Sequence record: NZ_CP121825.1
Reading direction: 5' to 3' (one strand)
DNA: 7,980 nucleotides
Origin: a plasmid
Position numbers and translations under genes: made by a program. The notes beneath the pieces are model-generated. The model was not told the origin of the DNA. It worked only from the letters and a program-made list of their open reading frames with translations, and made no database searches. Below are positions 1 through 7,980 of the stretch, piece after piece. Each line of letters starts with the position of its first letter. Position 1 is the stretch's first letter.

Positions 1-6
1 AAAAGT

Positions 7-34
7 GGTGCGCATAACGCCTTTTATGTTCAAT
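7..34. other. dif-like XerC/XerD recombination site. XerC arm GGTGCGCATAA, central CGCCTT, XerD arm TTATGTTCAAT.
   Basis: The XerC arm is identical to the E. coli dif XerC arm. The right arm differs from the dif XerD arm TTATGTTAAAT by one base. The spacing is 11-6-11. A second copy lies 4983 bp downstream in the same orientation. Confidence 0.75.
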
Positions 35-472
35 TGCCGATTTCACATGGCAAAACGGCCACTCCGTCAGGATGCGGCCGCCTGTATCGCGTTTTGGGGC
101 GTTTTGACACACAAGACAGGGCGTTTATCGCCTGAAAGTTTGCAACGCTTCTGGGGCGGTTTTAGGGCTGGATCCTGCGTGGTATGGTTTCAGCGCGTTT
201 TAACAGCCTATCGAGCATTAGCCTCGGCTGCCCTCCGAGCGTGTCCAGCGAACTCCTTCGGGGCCGCCAGGTTGATTTCCTGAAGCGGAAGGGCTGAGGC
301 TTCGCCATTAGTAATAGGGGAGGGACTTGTCTCACTGCGTTGTTGAGCGAAGTCCATCAAGGTGGGGGCAGTGGTCCCGCTCTGTGGAGATCAGTGCAGC
401 ACTCCTGAACGGGAGCGACTAGCGCAGTCTGTCGCGCCCCGTTCGGGAGGTGGCAAGCGCAGCGCGGCAGCC

Positions 473-715
473 TTAACGGCTGCTGAGATCCACCTCGATG
501 CGGCGAAAACCGATGGTGTGCGCCGTGTTCACCCCGGCATCGATGGTCTTAAAGACCCGCCACCCTCCGCGCTGGCGTTCCAGCACTTCCGTTTCTGCAT
601 TGCGGCCAAACTTCACCAGGTGAAGATGGTAGCCGGCACCCATCGGGGTCGGGGCGATCACCGCCTTGGCAAATCCCCCTTGTTCAAATACCCACTTCGC
701 CTTGATCTCTTCCAT
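473..715 (-). CDS. Conserved hypothetical small protein of 80 aa (MEEIKAKWVFEQGGFAKAVIAPTPMGAGYHLHLVKFGRNAE...).
   Basis: Complete ORF. All 7 nucleotide substitutions against copy 2 within the shared frame are synonymous (GCC/GCT, GTG/GTT, GGG/GGC, GGT/GGG, AAG/AAA, AGC/AGT, CTC/CTA). That argues for real coding on the minus strand. No confident family assignment. Confidence 0.7.
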   Translation of the reverse strand: MEEIKAKWVFEQGGFAKAVIAPTPMGAGYHLHLVKFGRNAETEVLERQRGGWRVFKTIDAGVNTAHTIGFRRIEVDLSSR

Positions 716-729
716 ATCAAAAACCTATT

Positions 730-797
730 TTGATGGTTCGTATCTGCGTTATGACACCAACACAGCCAAACATCAAATTATAATTACGAACCATCAA
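730..797. promoter_or_regulatory. Inverted repeat with 13-bp arms (TTGATGGTTCGTA ... TACGAACCATCAA) and a 42-bp AT-rich spacer. It lies upstream of the minus-strand 80-aa gene.
   Basis: Perfect arms in copy 1. Copy 2 (5650-5717) carries two compensatory arm changes (G:C to A:T at two paired positions), so the pairing is preserved. Confidence 0.6.
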
Positions 798-823
798 ATT
801 CTTATTTTGATTGGCGTTACTCA

Positions 824-960
824 GGTTCGTAGAACCGCACTCGGGTTTCAAAGGGGCGCCCCTTTGGCACGCCGATAGGATGCAGGCACGCCGACGGTAC
901 AAACGCAGTTTGTATACGCTCGGTCTCGTGCCTGTATACAGTCGGTGTCGTGCCTGTCTG
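824..960. repeat. Dense cluster of short palindromes and direct repeats. GGTTCgtaGAACC is at 824-836. The 18-bp perfect palindrome CAAAGGGGCGCCCCTTTG is at 849-866. TACAAACgcaGTTTGTA is at 898-914. The direct repeat GGCACGCCGA occurs twice. CGGTnTCGTGCCTGT occurs twice at 921-957.
   Basis: Seen directly in the sequence and conserved in copy 2 at 5744-5880. Cis-acting site cluster that looks like an origin or att site. Confidence 0.6.
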
Positions 961-981
961 CACTAACACCGCAACCACTAG

Positions 982-1080
982 ACCTACAGAATACCTACCG
1001 TTTACCTACAGAATCCCTACTGTCTACCTACGGCCTGCCTACTGTTTGCCTACAGAACACCTACGGAATACCTACAGAAT
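982..1080 (+). repeat. Nine contiguous 11-bp direct repeats (consensus aCCTACaGaat).
   Basis: Units at 982, 993, 1004, 1015, 1026, 1037, 1048, 1059 and 1070. The invariant core CCTAC recurs once per helical turn. Absent from element 2. Confidence 0.85.
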
Positions 1081-1110
1081 GGAGAGCAAAACTGATGACA
1101 GGTGGCGAGG

Positions 1111-1181
1111 CCACAAAAAGACCCACAAAATAACCCACACACACCAAGCGACCCACACATTGCCCCACAAAAAGACCCACA
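1111..1181 (+). repeat. Six copies of (C)CCACA spaced 12-18 bp apart.
   Basis: CCACA or CCCACA at 1111, 1122, 1134, 1152, 1164 and 1176. Element 2 has only a single CCTACA and ACCCACA at the equivalent place. Confidence 0.7.
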
Positions 1182-1196
1182 GAATCGGATACCAAA

Positions 1197-1409
1197 TTGA
1201 TGAATCAAAAAACGAATTTGAAGAGCATTCCTGAGGAGCAGTTCAGCCCGTACCGAGCCGCTGACTACCTAACGACCCCAGCGGAGATTGCCGCCTACAT
1301 CGAGGTCGCCAAGGAGGAAAACGATCCGGCCCTTCTCGCTGCCGTCATGGAGGACATCCGCCAAATCGAGACGGTGCAACATGCCAGCAAAACGCGAATC
1401 CTGCCTTAG
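1197..1409 (+). CDS. Small protein of 70 aa resembling the N-terminal domain of HigA-family addiction-module antidote proteins (..AADYLTTPAEIAAYIEVAKEENDPALLAAVMEDI..). No helix-turn-helix domain.
   Basis: The motif pattern DYL..PE.IAAYL.A..E.DPAL is typical of that family. In the conserved 3' half, 7 of 8 substitutions against copy 2 are synonymous. Confidence 0.6.
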   Translation: MMNQKTNLKSIPEEQFSPYRAADYLTTPAEIAAYIEVAKEENDPALLAAVMEDIRQIETVQHASKTRILP

Positions 1410-1442
1410 CCATAGAGCAACCATGAATTTCGTACGTACGAA
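1394..1442. repeat. 49-bp direct-repeat unit R1 (GCGAATCCTGCC...AATTTCGTACGTACGAA) containing the perfect 14-bp palindrome TTCGTACGTACGAA (1429-1442).
   Basis: Repeated at 1577-1616 with the palindrome at 1603-1616. The same pair occurs in element 2 (palindromes at 6833-6846 and 7006-7019). Confidence 0.8.
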
Positions 1443-1458
1443 GAAAAGGGGGCACACA

Positions 1459-1641
1459 GTGACATATCAGAGGCTGACGAAACAAGAACTCACCGAGCTA
1501 CGGGAGGAAATGAGGGCCGCCGGAGAATGGGCTAAAACCGTCTTGGAACAAGAGCGGCGGCAGCCGGTACCAAATTGCGAATCCTGCCCTAGCACCTCAA
1601 ATTTCGTACGTACGAAAAAACCAACCCCGCTCCGTGGATAA
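1459..1641 (+). CDS. Hypothetical 60-aa protein with a GTG start (VTYQRLTKQELTELREEMRAAGEWAKTVLEQERRQ...).
   Basis: Strong Shine-Dalgarno AAAGGGGG 6 nt upstream. Present in both elements (6862-7044). Its N-terminal half is conserved, mostly through synonymous or conservative changes. Confidence 0.45.
   Translation: MTYQRLTKQELTELREEMRAAGEWAKTVLEQERRQPVPNCESCPSTSNFVRTKKPTPLRG
1577..1616. repeat. Direct-repeat unit R2 with the second TTCGTACGTACGAA palindrome.
   Basis: See R1. Confidence 0.8.
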
Positions 1642-2382
1642 GCCCTACTGCCCACAGGCCAAAAACACGGCCTGATGGACAGCCCTTCGGGAACGGGCTT
1701 AACCACCTCGCCAAGATCCTCTCTCGATTATGAAGAGCTCAAAGACAACGGCCTAAAGGCCGCGCGAAAAAGGATGTCGCAGAGCTCCCCGGTCAGCAGG
1801 CTCTCCTATCTTTCCGCTGCGCTTCAAGATAGGAGAGCCCTCCTGCTTGGCTACGTTAAAAATGACGTAGTTACACAAGATAGACTCGCCTTGCTCCGGA
1901 CTATCGAGACCGCTTGCGGCAGCTCCCTCTCACGCGCTCCAGAGACACACCCCGTCCTTGCTGCATCTGCTTTAGTCCCCGCCTGATGGCCAGACTGCCT
2001 CGCCGTTTTTTAAGAGCTGGCCGTGGTTGGTTCCCCGTTACGCTCTGCTTGCAAATGCCCCAGGGTTGCGAGTCCTGGGAGGCTGTGATGCGCGATCGCA
2101 CGCTGGGCAGTATGTGAGATTTCCCCGTTCTGCCCGACCAACCACACCCACTCACGGCAACAAACTCATGCTTCCAATCCGTGCGGGTACGACAAAGCGC
2201 CAAAGGTGGTGGCCTTTGGTAACGGGCGTAGAGAGAGGGAATGCTTGATTGATGGGCGCCAAGGAGGCTAAACTTATTAGGCTTTTAGGTGACTGCTTCC
2301 CTCTACGGAGCCGTTACCAGGTGAAGTCGGTTCCCCAACTGACTACACCTTCGAACAAACCACCTTGCCGGGTGGTTTTTTT
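1642..2382 (+). ncRNA. Candidate large structured non-coding RNA of about 740 nt, copy 1.
   Basis: No ORF is conserved between the copies (the 103-aa ORF is broken by a stop in copy 2). There are many GC-rich hairpins: GGCCtaaaGGCC, CTCTCCTAT...ATAGGAGAG and CCAAAGG..CCTTTGG. Compensatory substitutions between the copies occur at 2061-2080 (CCAGG/CCTGG against CCACG/CGTGG) and in the helix 2234-2309 (AGAGGGAA/TTCCCTCT against GCGGGAA/TTCCCGC). It ends in an intrinsic terminator. Confidence 0.5.
2357..2382 (+). terminator. Rho-independent terminator: AAACCACCttgccgGGTGGTTTTTTT.
   Basis: A stem of 6-8 bp with a 6-nt loop, followed by a 7-T run. Confidence 0.8.
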
Positions 2383-2481
2383 CGTTTCTGGCGAACAGAA
2401 CAGATCGGGCTGGTAAGGTTCAACCGAGTACTTTCCGAGATCAGCCACGCAACTGGGGAACATATCCAAGCGCATGTGCTG

Positions 2482-2715
2482 ATGACTCGTACCAATCCTA
2501 GCCGCAAGAATTTTGCGGCTATCAGCGATGAACTAACAAGGCTGCCGCACCTCACCATGATGACCTCCAAGTTGAGCCGACGGGCAGACTGGGCCAACCA
2601 GATGGAGTCCGGCTTGGGAGTAACGGAGAGAGCAGCAACTCGCAGCAGCGCAGCGGGAATGGAGGCGAAAGCATTAGCGGAAGAAGTGCGGGAAAAACTT
2701 GCCTCGCTCGCTTAA
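2482..2715 (+). CDS. Hypothetical 77-aa protein (MTRTNPSRKNFAAISDELTRLPHL...). It lies in a 245-bp segment present only in element 1.
   Basis: ORF with an internal ATG. Only the last 20 codons or so are retained in element 2. No family recognised. Confidence 0.25.
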   Translation: MTRTNPSRKNFAAISDELTRLPHLTMMTSKLSRRADWANQMESGLGVTERAATRSSAAGMEAKALAEEVREKLASLA

Positions 2716-2734
2716 TGATATTAATTTAATATCA
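2716..2734. promoter_or_regulatory. 19-bp perfect palindrome TGATATTAAtTTAATATCA. It lies 25 bp upstream of the small ribbon-helix-helix-like gene and is a likely operator overlapping its promoter.
   Basis: Conserved exactly at 7872-7890 in element 2. Confidence 0.6.
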
Positions 2735-2758
2735 AATAGATACGAAAGAGATATTAAA

Positions 2759-2999
2759 ATGGCAAGAAAACTAATCAATCTGGATGACCTTGGCGCAGGA
2801 GCCCCCCCTCAAAGAGGTGGTAGCGGCGACTGGCAGCAGAGGGAAGATCCCCACCAAGGCCAAGAATATCCAGAACATGCCGTTGGAGTTTTTTACACGC
2901 CACGCGGCGTTGAGGGAAAAGGGCAATACCAGCTTGCTATTCACTCCGTACATCATCGAAGCAGTCCGCAAAGCACTGGAAGAAGACGAACAGAGCTAA
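2759..2999 (+). pseudogene. Small protein of about 79 aa with a ribbon-helix-helix-like C-terminus (...KIPTKAKNIQNMPLEFFTRHAALREKGNTSLLFTPYIIEAVRKALEEDEQS). It is frameshifted at the 7-C run 2802-2808.
   Basis: Element 2 (7916 onwards) has 6 C and reads straight through from ATG into the ..LKEVV.. frame. Element 1 needs a -1 correction at the C-run to join ATG 2759 to the 2784-2999 frame. Confidence 0.5.
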
Positions 3000-3044
3000 C
3001 AATAGCATCACAGGCCATACCCACCAGTGGGCATGACCTCAACG

Positions 3045-3078
3045 ATAAGGGGCATCCGTTTAACGCAACGCCCCTTAT
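3045..3078. terminator. Hairpin ATAAGGGGC-(16 nt)-GCCCCTTAT between the convergent small gene and the methyltransferase gene. No clear U-run on either strand.
   Basis: A perfect 9-bp stem seen in the sequence. Possible bidirectional terminator, weak. Confidence 0.3.
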
Positions 3079-3121
3079 CTGCACTCAATTCACACTACAA
3101 TTTTGCTTTAAAGATAGATAG

Positions 3122-4186
3122 TCACACCGACTCAGATTGCATCGCAGGCGTCATATCTTGCGAGGCCAAGTTTTGGCACAAATTACAATCCAACGACACC
3201 GTGTCTCCATTCATAATCCGATTGTAAATGCTCAATACATCCTCGTCAGAGACCCCCTTATCTAGGAAGCGAAATGCGGAGGCTGCGACATACTCAGGCT
3301 GCATTTCAAATGAAATCCACTTTCGAGACTCTTTCTCAGCAACCATCCCTGTTGTGTTCGAACCGCCAAAAATGTCTACAACAAGATCACCTGGCTCGGT
3401 CAACATTCTAATAAAAAACTCAGGCAACTTTGCTGGAAATCTAGCTGGGTGGGCCTTAACCCCCACAATTTTGCAACCAGCTTGATACTGCCCATTTGAC
3501 TCAGAGTTTGGTATTTGCAGCAAATTAGGAGGAATTGCCCCTCCATTGTCATTTGCAAATGACTTCCCTATGTCATGACCGGAAGGTCTAACTTTTGGAG
3601 TATAAAATTTATCTGGATCCTCCAACAGTTTTTTCATGCGATCACTATATGGAGCCAAAACTTTAGTTATATCTGATTTTGGCCATTCCGTTTTGCTGAA
3701 CCACCAAACAGTATTAACAGCATCTTTAACCCGGATTTTTCTTTTATTAACCCACTCGATTGGGCTTGGTAGCTTAGAAGGATTAAACCAATAGAAATCT
3801 TCCGCCAAGAAGAAACCCACTTCATCAATCATCCTAATCAAAACCCTAAAGTTATATAGACTTCTTGCTGGCACCCCTTTCATATAGGCACCACCAAAAT
3901 CAACAACAAAACTACCGTCAGGCTTTAACTTTTTAAAAACCACTTTTGCAAAAGATAAAAACCAATCCACGTATTCATGCTGCTCTAAATTTCCATATTC
4001 TTTTTTCCGCTGCAACGCAAACGGAGGGCTGGTCATAACCAAGCTAACGCTCTCGTCCTGAAGAGACTCAAGAAGTTCCAGCGAGTCACCAATGTAAACA
4101 GCCCCGTTACTTGTTGTATAGGCAGGACAAATATCACTTTTCAACATCTTGTTGCTACTCATAGTCTGTAGATTCAAAGTCTTCAC
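3122..4186 (-). CDS. pvuIIM: Beta-class amino-DNA methyltransferase of the M.PvuII type (probably N4-cytosine), 354 aa.
   Basis: Motif IV TSPPF lies near the N-terminus and motif I DIFGGSNTTG near the C-terminus, which is beta-class order. GTG start at 4186 with in-frame ATGs at codons 9 and 14, which parallels the two-start arrangement of M.PvuII. It is divergently arranged with the C and R genes. Confidence 0.9.
   Translation of the reverse strand: MKTLNLQTMSSNKMLKSDICPAYTTSNGAVYIGDSLELLESLQDESVSLVMTSPPFALQRKKEYGNLEQHEYVDWFLSFAKVVFKKLKPDGSFVVDFGGAYMKGVPARSLYNFRVLIRMIDEVGFFLAEDFYWFNPSKLPSPIEWVNKRKIRVKDAVNTVWWFSKTEWPKSDITKVLAPYSDRMKKLLEDPDKFYTPKVRPSGHDIGKSFANDNGGAIPPNLLQIPNSESNGQYQAGCKIVGVKAHPARFPAKLPEFFIRMLTEPGDLVVDIFGGSNTTGMVAEKESRKWISFEMQPEYVAASAFRFLDKGVSDEDVLSIYNRIMNGDTVSLDCNLCQNLASQDMTPAMQSESV
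4156..4181. promoter_or_regulatory. Tandem C-boxes: tACTcatAGTC-TGTA-GATTcaaAGTC. Predicted binding site for the C protein and an activator/operator for the leaderless C-R transcript.
   Basis: Matches the GACT-n3-AGTC half-site pattern with a TGTA centre. It sits 24 bp upstream of the C-gene ATG and inside the N-terminal codons of the methyltransferase gene, as in PvuII. Confidence 0.6.
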
Positions 4187-4204
4187 GCGCTCATTATCTC
4201 GCGT

Positions 4205-4434
4205 ATGACAAAGAATAGAAACCCCTTATCCGCCAGAAAAATACTAGCCCACAACCTCAAAGAAAAGCGGGGGGGGAGCTAGGCCTATCACAAGAAGCTT
4301 TAGCTGACATGGCTGGGCTCCATAGAACTTATGTTGGTTCAGTAGAACGAGCAGAAAGAAACATATCCATAGATAACATTGAACGCCTAGCAAAAGCGCT
4401 CAATGTTCATCCATCATCTCTACTAATGGAATAG
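4205..4434 (+). pseudogene. pvuIIC: Controller (C) protein gene of the XRE helix-turn-helix family. It is frameshifted in the 8-G run 4269-4276.
   Basis: The first frame gives MTKNRNPLSARKILAHNLKEKRGG. The second gives LGLSQEALADMAGLHRTYVGSVERAERNISIDNIERLAKALNV. Joined, they make a typical 76-aa C protein. Nine G would be in frame. Confidence 0.8.
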
Positions 4435-4439
4435 AAGTA

Positions 4440-4920
4440 ATGTCTCATAACGATTTTGAAAAATTAAAAAAAACTATGGCCAAACATCCAGGAATACCAA
4501 GAGCTGGCAACTAAACACGGCATAAAGGATATATTTCAAGATAACGGAGGAAAACTTCTTCAGGTAATTTTAATAACGAACCTACAGGTTCTAAGCGGTA
4601 GGGAGGGTAATGATGCAGTTGATATTAATGGACAGGAGTACGAACTAAAGTCAATCAATATCGATCTAACAAAGGGCTTCTCTACTCATCATCACATGAA
4701 CCCTACAATCATTGCAAAGTACAGAAAGGTTCCATGGATATTTGCCATATACAAAAACATTGAACTCCAGGAGATATATCAGTTGGAGCCAGGTGATTTG
4801 GAATGTTACTATTCCAAGTGGGAGCAAAAATGGCATGAAGATGGAGGGAAGGACATTAACAACCCCAAAATCCCTGTTAGTTTTGTAATAGAAGTCGGAA
4901 AAAAAATATACCCTCAGTGA
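4440..4920 (+). pseudogene. pvuIIR: Restriction endonuclease gene homologous to R.PvuII, about 159 aa. It is frameshifted in the 8-A run 4466-4473.
   Basis: After the frameshift the translation is ..[81 protein letters not shown]. It shows high identity to R.PvuII as I recall it, including the catalytic D..E.K. Seven A would be in frame. The gene starts 5 bp after the C-gene stop. Confidence 0.9.
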
Positions 4921-4989
4921 CTTATAATCGCCAAGGATGGTTCGATTTCTTTACTGCGAGCCAAAAAGTCAACCCGTAACACTAAAAGT

Positions 4990-5017
4990 GGTGCGCATAA
5001 CGCCTTTTATGTTAAAC
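4990..5017. other. Second dif-like XerC/XerD site. GGTGCGCATAA-CGCCTT-TTATGTTAAAC.
   Basis: Same XerC arm and central region as site 1. The XerD arm has one mismatch to the canonical dif arm. It marks the start of the second repeated element. Confidence 0.75.
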
Positions 5018-5391
5018 CACGACTTTTAGCGGCTAAAACGGGGCACAGGCGGCAAACAGGCCGCCTGTATCGCGTTTTGGGGCGTTTCGACACACAAGGC
5101 AGGGCATTTGCAGCCTGAAAGTTTGCAACGCTTCTGAGGCGTTTTTAGGGGCGGAGCCTGCGGGGTATGGTTTTAGCCCGTTTTAGCGGCCTATCGCGCA
5201 TTAGTCTCGGTTGCCCTCCGAGCGTGTCCGACGGACGCCTGCGGGGGCCAATAGGTGAAGCAAAACGGAGTCCATCAATGGTGGGGCCAGCGGCCCCACC
5301 CTGTGGAGATCAGGGCAACACTCCCAAACGGGAGCGACTAGCGCAGTCTGTCGCGCTTCGTTCGGGAGTCGGCAAGCGCAGCGCGGCAGCC

Positions 5392-5635
5392 TTAACGACT
5401 GCTTAGATCCACCTCGATGCGGCGAAAACCGATGGTGTGCGCCGTGTTAACCCCAGCATCGATGGTCTTAAAGACCCGCCAGCCTCCGCGCTGGCGTTCC
5501 AGCACTTCCGTTTCTGCATTGCGGCCAAACTTCACCAGGTGAAGATGGTAGCCGGCCCCCATCGGGGTCGGGGCGATCACCGCTTTGGCAAAGCCCCCCT
5601 TGTTCAAATACCCACTTCGCCTTGATCTCTTCCAT
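5392..5635 (-). pseudogene. Second copy of the 80-aa gene. The N-terminus is frameshifted by one extra nucleotide at a C-run (6 C at 5594-5599 against 5 C in copy 1).
   Basis: The C-terminal 62 aa are identical to copy 1. The frame breaks at the homopolymer. Confidence 0.6.
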
Positions 5636-5994
5636 ATCAAAAACCTGTTTTGATGATTCATATCTACGTTATGACACCAACGCAGCTAAACATCAAATTA
5701 TAATTATGAATAATCAAATTCTAATTTTGATTGGTATTACTCAGGTTCGTAGAACCGCACTCGGGTTTCAAAGGGGGCGACCCTTTGGCACGCCGATAGG
5801 ATGCAGGCACGCCGACGGTACAAACGCAGTTTGTATACGTTCGGTCTCGTGCCTGTATACAGTCGGTGTCGTGCCTGTCTGTTTCTTCAATTTCTGTATG
5901 CACCTACAAAAAACCCACATAAAGGAAGCATAAAGAAGGCGATAGGGAATCAATTGGGGTGCATTTAGAAACCATTAAGGTCATATAAAACCTA

Positions 5995-6011
5995 CAGATA
6001 GATACTATCTG
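5995..6011. promoter_or_regulatory. 17-bp palindrome CAGATAGatACTATCTG upstream of the 176-aa ORF.
   Basis: Perfect 7-bp arms. The direct repeat GCATTCT occurs twice just downstream. Confidence 0.4.
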
Positions 6012-6062
6012 GGTAGCATTCTGGTACATTGGTGGGCATTCTCACTGAAAAATGACGCCGCC

Positions 6063-6593
6063 ATGCTGCCGAAACCAAGCAATAAATTCATTCCAAAGAT
6101 CGAGTCATACCTCCACCAAGGGGAGGTATCAAAACCCAAGGCAAAAGTAATCGCCCACGTCTATCCAGAAGTGGAGACGATGATCGAACAAGGCTTTTCC
6201 CTTACTCAAATCGTGGCGGCCATCAATGCGAACGATGTGGGCTTTACCATCACACTTGCCACCTTCAAAAACACCCTGCATAGGCTGCGCAAGCGCCAGA
6301 TTCAACAAGCACCGACACCGAAGAACATCACACAGCCAGCCCGTAACGCATTCCGCGAGAGGCCAAAAAAGATTCAGCACGATAACAATCCTGATCTTGA
6401 TGCGCTGCTAGATAGGCTGGGAGCTGAAGCGGGAACCTTGGCTGACTACTTAAAGGTGTGTTTCAACTCGGAATCTATCGCCAACAGGGCCATAGAGGCT
6501 GGGGTATCCATAGAGGAAATTAGGTCATGGGAATGCCCGAACCAGATCCGGCTTGGCACAAGGTTAAGCCACTTCATTAGAAGTGCATCATAA
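6063..6593 (+). CDS. Hypothetical 176-aa protein unique to element 2, with a possible helix-turn-helix segment (GFSLTQIVAAINANDVGFTITLATFKNTLHRLRKRQ).
   Basis: Long ORF occupying the slot where element 1 has the iterons. There is no clear Shine-Dalgarno at ATG 6063, and an alternative start exists near 6181 after GGAG. No confident family assignment. Confidence 0.45.
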   Translation: MLPKPSNKFIPKIESYLHQGEVSKPKAKVIAHVYPEVETMIEQGFSLTQIVAAINANDVGFTITLATFKNTLHRLRKRQIQQAPTPKNITQPARNAFRERPKKIQHDNNPDLDALLDRLGAEAGTLADYLKVCFNSESIANRAIEAGVSIEEIRSWECPNQIRLGTRLSHFIRSAS

Positions 6594-6603
6594 AGGTAAA
6601 GTG

Positions 6604-6813
6604 ATGAGTCAAAATTTAAATTTGATTGCTACGGGGAAAGAGCAATTCAGCCGATACCATGTTGCCGACTACCTGACGAACCGTGCAGACGTCTCGGCCT
6701 ACCTCAAAGCCGCCAAGGAAGAGAACGATCCGGCCCTCCTCGCTGCCGTCATGGAAGACATCCGCCAAATAGAAGCGGTGCAACATGCCAGCAAAACGCG
6801 AATCCTGCCATAG
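6604..6813 (+). CDS. Second copy of the HigA-N-like small protein. Its N-terminal half is divergent, and there is an alternative upstream ATG at 6583.
   Basis: AAGGTAAAG Shine-Dalgarno before ATG 6604. The C-terminal 35 aa are identical to copy 1, while the N-terminal half is only about 50% identical. Confidence 0.6.
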   Translation: MSQNLNLIATGKEQFSRYHVADYLTNRADVSAYLKAAKEENDPALLAAVMEDIRQIEAVQHASKTRILP

Positions 6814-6861
6814 CCATAGAGCAGCCATGAATTTCGTACGTACGAAGAAAAGAGGCACCCA

Positions 6862-7044
6862 GTGACATATCAGAAGCTGACGAAACAAGAACTCACCGAG
6901 CTACTGGAGGAAATGAGGGCGGCCGGAGAATGGGCTAAAGCCGTTTTGGAACAAGAGCGGCGGCAAACGCTAGCACATTGCGAATCCTGCACTAGCACCT
7001 CAAATTTCGTACGTACGAAAAAACCAACCCAGCTCCGTGGATAA
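6862..7044 (+). CDS. Second copy of the 60-aa GTG-start ORF.
   Basis: AAGAGG Shine-Dalgarno upstream. Same frame and length as the element-1 copy. Confidence 0.45.
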   Translation: MTYQKLTKQELTELLEEMRAAGEWAKAVLEQERRQTLAHCESCTSTSNFVRTKKPTQLRG

Positions 7045-7784
7045 GCCCTACTGCCCACAGGCCAAACACACGGCCTGATGGACAGCCCTTCGGGAACGGG
7101 CTTAACCACCTCGCCAAGATCCTCTCTCGATGATGAAGAGAGCAAAAACAACGGCCTAAAGGCCGTGCAAAAAAAGATGTCGCAAAGCTCCCCAGTTAGC
7201 CGGCTCTCCTATCGTTCCGCTGCGCTTCAAGATAGGAGAGCCCTCCTGCTTGGCTACGTTAAAAATGACGTAGTTACACAAGATTGACTCGCCTTGCTCC
7301 GGACTATCGAGACTGCTTGCGGCAGCTCCCTCTCACGCGCTCCAGAGACACACCCCGTCCTTGCTGCATCTGCTTTAGTCCCCGCCTGATGGCCAGACTG
7401 CCGCGCCGTTTTTTAAGAGCTGGCCGTGGTTGGTTCCCCGTTACGCTCTGCTTGCAAATGCCCCACGGTTGCGAATCGTGGGCGGCAGTGGTGCGCGATC
7501 GCACGCTGGGCAGTATGTGAGATTTCCCCGTTCTGCCCGACCAACCACACCCACAAACGGCAACAAACTCATGCTTCCAATCCGTGCGGGTACGACAAAG
7601 CGCCAAAGGTGGTGGCCTTCGGTAACGGGTCGAGTTGCGGGAAAAGCTTGATTGAATGGCCGAATGGCCGCTAAACTGATTAGGACTTTTGGTAGCTGCT
7701 TCCCGCACGGAGCCGTTACCAGGTGAAGTCGGTTCCCCAACTGACAACACCTTCGAAGAAACCGCCCTGCAAGGCGGTTTTTTC
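7045..7784 (+). ncRNA. Candidate large structured RNA, copy 2.
   Basis: Homologous to 1642-2382, with compensatory changes in three helices. Confidence 0.5.
7758..7784 (+). terminator. Rho-independent terminator, copy 2: AAACCGCCctgcaaGGCGGTTTTTT.
   Basis: The stem is preserved by a compensatory A:T to G:C change relative to copy 1. Confidence 0.8.
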
Positions 7785-7915
7785 GTTTCTGGTGCAACTG
7801 CAGCAGCGCAGCGGGAATGGAGGCGAAAGCATTAGCGGAAGAAGTGCGGGAAAAACTTGTTGCTCGCTTAATGATATTAATTTAATATCAAAATAGATAC
7901 GAAAGAGATATTAAA

Positions 7916-7980
7916 ATGGAAGAAAAAACCGCTAATCAATCTGATGACCTTGGCGCAGGAGCCCCCCTCAAAGAGGTGGT
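7916..7980 (+). CDS. Start of the second copy of the small ribbon-helix-helix-like protein (MEEKTANQSDDLGAGAPLKEVV...). It is truncated by the end of the window.
   Basis: In frame through the 6-C run. The same operator palindrome lies upstream. Confidence 0.45.
   Translation, partial: MEEKTANQSDDLGAGAPLKEV

Follow-up and report, generated by a model that had tools for sequence, protein, structure and literature searches.

Two distinct ColE1-type replicons joined head to tail at pdif-like Xer sites, with PvuII-type restriction-modification cargo: a probable cointegrate of small Aeromonas plasmids

We analysed a stretch of 7,980 nucleotides from the plasmid record NZ_CP121825.1 (the whole of this stretch is called the window below). 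It carries two directly repeated Xer sites, each of which opens a plasmid backbone unit of about 3 kb, and a PvuII-type restriction-modification (R-M) system located between the two units. Read from left to right, the window consists of a site in C/D orientation, a replicon with the XerD arms facing inward, a site in D/C orientation, the R-M cargo with the XerC arms facing inward, another C/D site and a second replicon. It is most likely part of a plasmid from Aeromonas. In our reading the window is probably a cointegrate of two distinct ColE1-type plasmids that were joined head to tail at pdif-like sites, with the R-M cargo lying between inverted sites. The main doubt about this reading is an assembly artefact.

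Xer site 1 (positions 7 to 34, plus strand, C/D orientation) has the sequence GGTGCGCATAA CGCCTT TTATGTTCAAT and Xer site 2 (4990 to 5017, plus strand, C/D orientation) has the sequence GGTGCGCATAA CGCCTT TTATGTTAAAC. The two sites are direct repeats on one strand at a spacing of 4983 bp, and their XerC arms and spacers are identical. Both XerC arms are the same as the XerC arm of E. coli dif, for which we take the sequence that is established knowledge, and each XerD arm is one base off. The XerD arm TTATGTTAAAC is presumably also that of psi. The original prediction, made from the sequence letters without database searches, had reported two 28-bp dif-like sites as a direct repeat of 4983 bp, each opening a homologous backbone of about 3 kb. 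Positions, arms, spacing and backbone homology were all confirmed, and the homology begins at window position 1 and at position 4984. A scan with the E. coli dif arms, allowing any 6-bp spacer and up to three mismatches, matched only sites 1 and 2 in the window, and none of 200 dinucleotide-preserving shuffles of the window gave any match. Both sites are preceded by the 6 nt AAAAGT, which corresponds to a common flank type (CAGCCAAAAAGT) present in pAsa10 and other plasmids. When the flanks of core-sharing sites were clustered, the XerD-side flank of site 1 fell into backbone type R1, found at 32 other sites, and that of site 2 into backbone type R0, found at 31 sites.

Replicon module 1 (35 to 3057) has XerD arms at both ends (a "D module"). 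Its ColE1-type backbone is homologous to unit 2 and to Aeromonas plasmids L001 to L009 (L numbers designate the loci that were compared with the window). Replicon module 2 (5018 to 7980) is homologous to unit 1, and the window end falls inside its parG-like gene. The homology between the units continues, with insertions and deletions, to the window end; segment identities range from 78 to 100% and those of the long blocks from 85 to 95%. Inserts specific to unit 1 are found at 264-360, 961-1235 and 2386-2641, and one specific to unit 2 at 5882-6639. Each unit has a full-length RNAI antisense RNA on the plus strand (Rfam RF00106, gathering score 47), at 2281 to 2385 in unit 1 (54.7 bits) and at 7684 to 7786 in unit 2 (57.8 bits). 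In the alignment of the two RNAIs loop II is identical and loops I and III differ. A terminator hairpin with a T-run is located at 2357-2378. RNAI is the antisense regulator of ColE1-type replicons, in which the RNAII transcript and host enzymes prime replication and no initiator protein is encoded. The RNAII primer of unit 1 is predicted on the minus strand, from about position 2390 leftwards to about 1800-1850. Pfam and NCBIfam searches of the window open reading frames (ORFs) found no Rep, integrase or transposase family. It was concluded that each unit is an autonomous ColE1-type, RNA-primed plasmid replicon without a Rep protein. The statement in the original prediction that no integrase, transposase or replication-initiator gene is present is correct for protein genes, and the units lack a recombinase of their own, but the RNAI-based replicon was overlooked. 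No replication gene was seen because ColE1-type replication uses no plasmid-encoded initiator.

The cargo module (3086 to 4989) has XerC arms at both ends (a "C module") and no counterpart in unit 2. It encodes a PvuII-type R-M system with 75% nucleotide identity to that of pPvu1 from Proteus vulgaris. The gene for an N4/N6 DNA methyltransferase similar to M.PvuII (3122 to 4162, minus strand; Pfam PF01555, E = 9e-48) is intact. The controller gene (4205 to 4434, plus strand), which encodes a C.PvuII-like helix-turn-helix (HTH) protein annotated as an HTH regulator in pPvu1, has a frameshift in the G8 run at 4269-4276. The PvuII-like endonuclease gene (4440 to 4920, plus strand) has a frameshift in the A8 run at 4466-4473, and its 3' part (4696-4920) matches PF09225 with E = 8e-29. 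Just to the left of the cargo, the parG-like gene of unit 1 is frameshifted in a C-run near 2802. These frameshifts result either from error-prone reads or from true pseudogenes, the R-M system then decaying to a solitary methylase. The cargo segment has no match in any related plasmid locus, and no second copy of the R-M module was found. Look-ups of the exact protein sequences of the methyltransferase, with either of two start codons, and of the 176-aa ORF of unit 2 returned no record. A PvuII-like R-M system 72% identical to that of the window is carried by the Acinetobacter baumannii plasmid plas3_LRB (L121, CP121373, 99-3774), where it lies between two direct Acinetobacter pdif sites; one of these sites has the spacer CGCCCA, counted as a single-base departure from the CGCCTT/CGCCCA spacers in Aeromonas.

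The window contains a third Xer-like site, degenerate and in D/C orientation, at 3058 to 3085 (AGTGCAGATAA GGGGCG TTGCGTTAAAC, read on the minus strand). It sits between the parG-like gene and the cargo, exactly at the second edge of the cargo. The original prediction had raised the question of further dif-like sites. Within the window the strict scan gave only the two direct sites, and a looser scan added this one, with three mismatches to the family consensus NNTGCGYATAA-N6/7-TTAYGTTMAAN. At this level 0.0175 matches are expected per random window; only the level of three or fewer mismatches was used in the search for a third site, the chance rate at four or fewer being 0.22 per window. The homology shared with L005 and L001 extends no further than the outer end of this site's XerC arm. 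It is related to a class of sites with a 7-bp spacer in the relatives (NNTGCGYATAA GGGGGCG TTACGTTAAAT, n = 41), of which the XerD side is constant and the XerC side variable. Sites of the GGGGGCG class overlap a terminator-like hairpin (GGGCGT...ACGCCC followed by TTTTT) with the XerD arm as its loop, for example at L021 8428-8456, and by their sequence they may double as transcription terminators at the module edge.

In PLSDB, 175 Aeromonas plasmid records match the backbone, with identities of approximately 90-94%, and most of the close backbone matches are circular plasmids of 4-7 kb typed as "rep_cluster_2022". Two scans of related loci gave RNAI hits over the threshold, the first in 15 of 18 loci and the second in 7 of 12. 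Nine relatives were taken in full, eight of them 4.3-7.1 kb and one 24 kb in size. Each has exactly one site of the CGCCTT type, the spacer being CGCCTT in eight and CGCCCA in one. The XerC-side DNA of the nine is variable cargo, including qnrS2, XcyI or type I R-M systems and toxin-antitoxin genes. The 21-bp core of the site (GCGCATAACGCCTTTTATGTT) was found in eight contigs of a 185,579-species genome collection, all of 15 kb or less and six of them from Aeromonas, and in 90 metagenome contigs, among which the 80 with listed lengths are all 13.8 kb or shorter. It was found in no contig of a viral collection. Many of the metagenome contigs end within about 55 nt of the site, which marks the site as a branch point of the assembly graph. 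Sites of the CGCCTT and GGGGGCG classes are also present on L015, L017, L048, L070 and L090, which have a repBA pseudoknot (RF01089) and no RNAI; thus the sites are not bound to one replicon type.

The relatives show the signature of crossover at the site. After 110 core-sharing sites were oriented and 40 nt on each side clustered, the XerC side showed 57 flank types versus 10 for the XerD side. The three outermost nt of the XerC arm (e.g., TCT, GAT or AAT) always co-occur with the left flank, and the four outermost nt of the XerD arm follow the right flank (e.g., CAAG with one type and AAAT with another), while 10 of 19 recurrent left-flank types are joined to at least two right-flank types. 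Since the arm ends travel with their flanks and the flanks reassort, the breakpoints lie inside the invariant 21-bp core. Such core breakpoints are the product expected of site-specific exchange and not of random illegitimate or homologous events. In 635 kb of related loci we counted 205 Xer-like sites, against about 1.4 expected by chance. At least two sites are present in 51 related loci, and 59 pairs of neighbouring sites are inverted against 29 that are direct. One example of module reuse is a 368-bp D module with a 270-bp ORF (WP_039062313.1), bounded by a CGCCTT site and a GGGGGCG site with the XerD arms inward. It is found at L016 4146-4569, L036 2800-3223, L118 9561-9984 and eight other loci. 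Among these 11 loci the interior has a median identity of 99.5%, whereas immediately beyond both sites the sequences are unrelated (25-28% identity).

The two units of the window have distinct ancestry. Identity in the ori/RNAI segment is 97.1% between unit 1 and L055 and 98.9% between unit 2 and L001, versus 92.0% between unit 1 and unit 2. Segment by segment, both units are without exception more similar to independent database plasmids than to one another, which rules out duplication in situ and indicates the fusion of two lineages. The resulting cointegrate was most likely formed by XerCD, or is resolvable by XerCD. Host XerC and XerD would bind to the arms, with strand exchange taking place in the 6-bp spacer, and the CGCCTT sites of two co-resident plasmids would recombine to give a cointegrate. 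Because the spacers are identical, two plasmids could fuse and the fusion could be resolved. The two direct sites would resolve the cointegrate again, and in a homodimer they would act as a multimer-resolution site that restores monomers. Multicopy ColE1-type plasmids depend on such a return to monomers to be inherited stably. The cargo would end up on a new backbone after a second exchange, whether at another Xer site or through homologous recombination between the 85-95% identical backbones. The exchange is expected inside GCGCATAA-CGCCTT-TTATGTT, and the parental sites would bear swapped combinations of flanks.

In an assembly artefact, two co-resident related plasmids would have been joined in silico or by a chimeric read via their shared repeats. 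We consider this unlikely, with enough on its side to be taken seriously. The homopolymer frameshifts at 4269-4276, 4466-4473 and near 2802 indicate noisy reads, and all three (in the controller, endonuclease and parG-like genes) fall within about 2.2 kb. Several deposited "complete" Aeromonas plasmids in PLSDB (L020, L114, L116, L117 and L022) are non-integer tandem repeats of a 5.6-12.4 kb unit and are most likely long-read assembly concatemers rather than true dimers. Taken with the frameshifts, these self-concatemers make a chimeric join possible, and the frequent breaks of metagenome contigs close to the site point in the same direction. However, the window is not a self-concatemer, as its units are 5-15% different and each has its own inserts. 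The join is at a 30-bp Xer site and not in one of the longer identical stretches (60 nt at 2642-2701 and 7800-7859), where a repeat-driven misjoin is likelier. Genuine plasmids with two RNAI genes also exist: pAER-f133, a complete 30-kb Aeromonas plasmid, has two of them, so fusions of two replicons do occur in the genus. Other points besides the frameshifts and the concatemers weigh against a cointegrate resolved and formed in the way described. The window begins 6 nt to the left of site 1 and ends inside unit 2, and its circular closure lies outside it. No monomer with the PvuII cargo beside a CGCCTT site was found in 120 loci or in PLSDB, and the parents cannot be reconstructed. The site at 3058-3085 deviates at three conserved positions and may, by its sequence, be an inactive relic. 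A consensus promoter scan gave no sites for the RNAII and RNAI promoters. We infer from the sequence that XerCD catalysed the exchange, and likewise that the fusion was present in the cell and not merely in the assembly. In-situ tandem duplication of one plasmid segment with later divergence would explain two homologous blocks of about 3 kb in direct orientation. It is hardly credible here, as the ori region figures (98.9% for unit 2 and L001 and 97.1% for unit 1 and L055, versus 92.0% between units) refute it unless gene conversion from outside is invoked, and the XerD-side flanks R1 and R0 come from two separate widespread lineages.

Another explanation is that the sites are classical cer/psi-type sites for resolution only, in which accessory sequences prevent fusion, and that the tandem arose by homologous recombination of the backbones. 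Cer-like sites are typical of ColE1-type plasmids (PMC2731167 and established knowledge), backbones that are 85-95% identical over kilobases are sufficient for a RecA-dependent crossover, and a single homologous crossover between two plasmids would likewise yield a cointegrate with two direct sites. This explanation is nevertheless improbable, for the XerC side, where cer and psi have their accessory sequences, is variable up to the arm (57 flank types) with no conserved accessory region, and the breakpoints of the relatives map within the core. Lacking conserved accessory DNA on the XerC side, the sites are probably not classical cer/psi sites; they would be expected to behave as core-only, dif/pdif-like sites that can act within and between molecules. 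The original prediction had proposed a different origin, namely tandem elements of the IMEX type (integrative mobile elements exploiting Xer) that integrate by host XerCD at chromosomal dif, in the style of CTX/RS1/TLC arrays. The directly repeated dif-like sites with arms near dif and the window without a recombinase gene are in keeping with it. The predicted chromosomal dif of Aeromonas hydrophila ATCC 7966 is ACCGCGCATAA TGTATA TTATGTTAAAT (Carnoy and Roten, 2009, PMC2731167), and the arms are compatible with it: the XerC arms share their inner 8 nt, and 10 of 11 positions agree in the XerD arm. The central region is not, since with the probable Aeromonas host taken as given CGCCTT is identical to TGTATA at only two of six positions, one of the three on each side; the spacer mismatch disfavours productive strand exchange with dif. 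Each unit is moreover a ColE1-type replicon organised like the free circular plasmids of 4-7 kb, the core was found on small genome and metagenome contigs only, wherever a length was given, and on no viral contig, and the window contains no phage genes and no chromosomal flank. We therefore give an IMEX-like array at dif very little credence. What stands of that proposal is the reliance on host XerCD, in so far as the sites behave as XerCD-type crossover points with shuffled flanks and core breakpoints; integration at dif does not stand.

A pdif-type cointegrate has close parallels in the dif modules of Acinetobacter Rep_3/OrfX plasmids (Blackwell and Hall, 2017; Balalovski and Grainge, 2020; Xiao and Hall, 2026, PMC13141974). 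These also have core-only 11-6-11 sites in alternating orientation without accessory sequences, R-M or toxin-antitoxin cargo between inverted sites, a backbone bounded by two sites, and modules that recur in unrelated contexts, as the 368-bp module does among the relatives of the window. Their cointegrates are fusions of two backbones with direct sites and identical spacers. Alternating C and D modules and cointegrates with directly oriented sites of identical spacer characterise dif modules (PMC13141974). The window has distinct arms with a short spacer and no accessory DNA, inverted alternation of sites (the middle one degenerate) and identical spacers. It differs from the Acinetobacter plasmids in that their Rep_3/iteron backbone is a C module, whereas the ColE1-type RNA-primed backbone here has the XerD arms inward and is a D module. 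Other differences are the genus Aeromonas, arms near the enterobacterial dif, one common class with a 7-bp spacer (GGGGGCG), many monomers with a single recognisable site, and the degenerate state of the inverted site in the window.

Like cer (ColE1), psi (pSC101) and mwr (pJHCMW1), the sites in the window belong to small multicopy plasmids, ColE1-type plasmids included, form a direct repeat in a dimer and would be acted on by host XerCD. They have the XerC arm, a spacer within the 6-8 bp range and the XerD arm of such sites, and no accessory sequence. With 6 bp the spacer has the length found in dif and psi, that of cer being 8 bp. Cer, psi and mwr depend on a conserved accessory stretch of about 160-180 bp beside the XerC arm, together with PepA and ArgR or ArcA, whereas the XerC side here is variable up to the arm.

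The window also resembles enterobacterial ColE1-like plasmids (qnrB19 plasmids, the R-M plasmids pECL18/pKPN2, and pPvu1), which are small and have a Xer site immediately next to their cargo, type II R-M systems among it. Tran et al. in 2012 reportedly described the evolution of qnrB19 ColE1-like plasmids by Xer and oriT recombination, and the R-M plasmids pECL18/pKPN2 are said to come from the work of Zakharova et al. in 2002. For this group, passages of PMC8683028 and PMC6764390 propose cointegrate formation and resolution as a route of exchange. Unlike these plasmids, the window belongs to the Aeromonas "rep_cluster_2022" lineage, its sites lack accessory DNA of the cer type, and it contains no oriT or relaxase. 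With IMEX (CTXphi, RS1, TLC, VGJphi and the gonococcal genetic island) it shares the reliance on XerCD without a recombinase of its own and the direct dif-like sites that bound tandem units. IMEX integrate at chromosomal dif and need spacer homology, whereas the units here are free-plasmid replicons, their spacer differs from that of Aeromonas dif, and no chromosomal or phage context was found.

In genus and replicon type the nearest described plasmids are the small ColE1-type plasmids of Aeromonas (pAsa2, pAsa7, pAsaXII, pAsa10 and the qnrS2 plasmids). Those of A. salmonicida were described by Attéré et al. (2017, PMC5736529), in which Xer sites are not mentioned. The plasmids described there are monomers, whereas the window is a fusion of two replicons. 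Both site classes are present in pAsa10 (L118). Plasmid cointegrates that form and resolve at Xer sites have been reported (PMC6764390, PMC7399989). Xer sites on ColE1-type plasmids, Xer-mediated cointegrates, R-M cargo beside Xer sites and dif modules are thus already known (PMC6764390, PMC7399989, PMC8683028, PMC13141974). In the literature searched, which did not cover the pdifFinder survey, we found no description of pdif-like modules in Aeromonas plasmids, so earlier reports are possible.

The cargo in the pool of small Aeromonas plasmids includes qnrS2, tet(A), R-M and toxin-antitoxin genes, and the pool supplies fragments to Klebsiella plasmids. Cargo and backbones in this pool appear to be shuffled at host-Xer sites in a manner similar to that of Acinetobacter plasmids. 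We tentatively extend this to a wider proposal, which we regard as possible and still short of probable: a full dif-module system of their own may operate in the small ColE1-type plasmids of Aeromonas and of its relatives from freshwater and wastewater. It would comprise several core-only spacer classes (CGCCTT, the 7-bp GGGGGCG, TCGCTT, TGACACG and TCGCCA) and alternating C and D modules with the RNA-primed replicon as a D module, and the window would then show an intermediate of module exchange, caught as a cointegrate. If the shuffling at host-Xer sites is confirmed, it would widen the known host and replicon range of Xer-driven module exchange, and it would offer a ColE1-based system, easily handled in E. 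coli, for the study of recombination at core-only sites. For the annotation of similar sequences, gene-poor units with direct dif-like repeats around them are not necessarily IMEX elements, and searches for Rep genes miss a replicon that is RNA-primed.

A Klebsiella quasipneumoniae plasmid, pmS1O1-GES24 (L120), contains about 2 kb of Aeromonas backbone (4001-6021) between copies of ISKpn21. It also has its own Rop-type ColE1 replicon. The embedded segment, which includes the 80-amino acid (aa) ORF described below, lies next to a type I-like R-M pair. Just past the replicon in L120 (6272-6343) and in L008 (1879-1950), both of which have a type I-like R-M pair, is a tRNA-like sequence (Rfam tRNA, 58.5 bits).

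Next to the XerD arm of each direct site is an imperfect dyad (TGCCGATTTCACATGGCAAAACGG, TTTT-N8-AAAA type), at 35 to 58 for site 1 with a counterpart at 5018-5041 for site 2. The dyad is found at most CGCCTT sites, starting 2 bp past the arm, and its GC-rich outer positions sometimes change on both sides. It could be the binding site of an accessory factor on the XerD side. The covariation is weak (the observed score was reached by 6 of 500 shuffles, with 72.6% pairing versus 69.9% in shuffles), and the dyad was not relied on as a structured accessory element.

The conserved 80-aa ORF (WP_042469152-like) is encoded on the minus strand at 473 to 715, with an inverted repeat following at 716-811; its copy in unit 2 is at 5392-5634, also on the minus strand. 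Some records name it "RepB". As an initiator it was rejected, since it matches no replication family and its only hit is a ParC-like match of 17 bits against a cut-off of 95. Two repeat arrays are found in unit 1 only, at 983 to 1185 on the plus strand: nine 11-bp repeats (CCTACNGNNNN, 983-1080) and four 12-bp repeats (CCCACA..., 1111-1185). The 11-bp repeats consist of CCTAC plus 6 nt and have helical-turn spacing, and both arrays are upstream of a 70-aa ORF (1197 to 1409, plus strand). The arrays could be protein-binding sites, either centromere-like or operator. The 70-aa ORF has weak similarity to HI1420-type antidotes, below the curated cut-offs, and its homologue in unit 2 is a 76-aa ORF (6583-6813). 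In place of the arrays unit 2 has a 176-aa ORF of no known family (6063-6593). Further to the right in unit 1 is a remnant partition locus (2400 to 2999, plus strand), made up of a parA 3' end (to 2715) and the parG-like small gene (2759-2999). The match to NCBIfam ParA_partition is confined to the C-terminal part of the profile, and the relatives have an intact parA and small gene.

At 279-347 unit 1 has a 69-bp segment that unit 2 lacks. It shares 91% identity with the 3' end of a "replication protein" pseudogene, which is truncated and adjoins an antirestriction (klcA-type) gene in hundreds of KPC-type plasmids from Klebsiella and E. coli. In E. coli genomes, the match to the window is limited to a 69-bp fragment. 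A perfect 14-bp palindrome (TTCGTACGTACGAA) occurs twice in each unit, at 1429-1442 and 1603-1616 and at 6833-6846 and 7006-7019, with about 175 bp between the copies; none is expected by chance. Each copy lies inside a direct repeat of about 50 bp, and these repeats bracket a 60-aa ORF.

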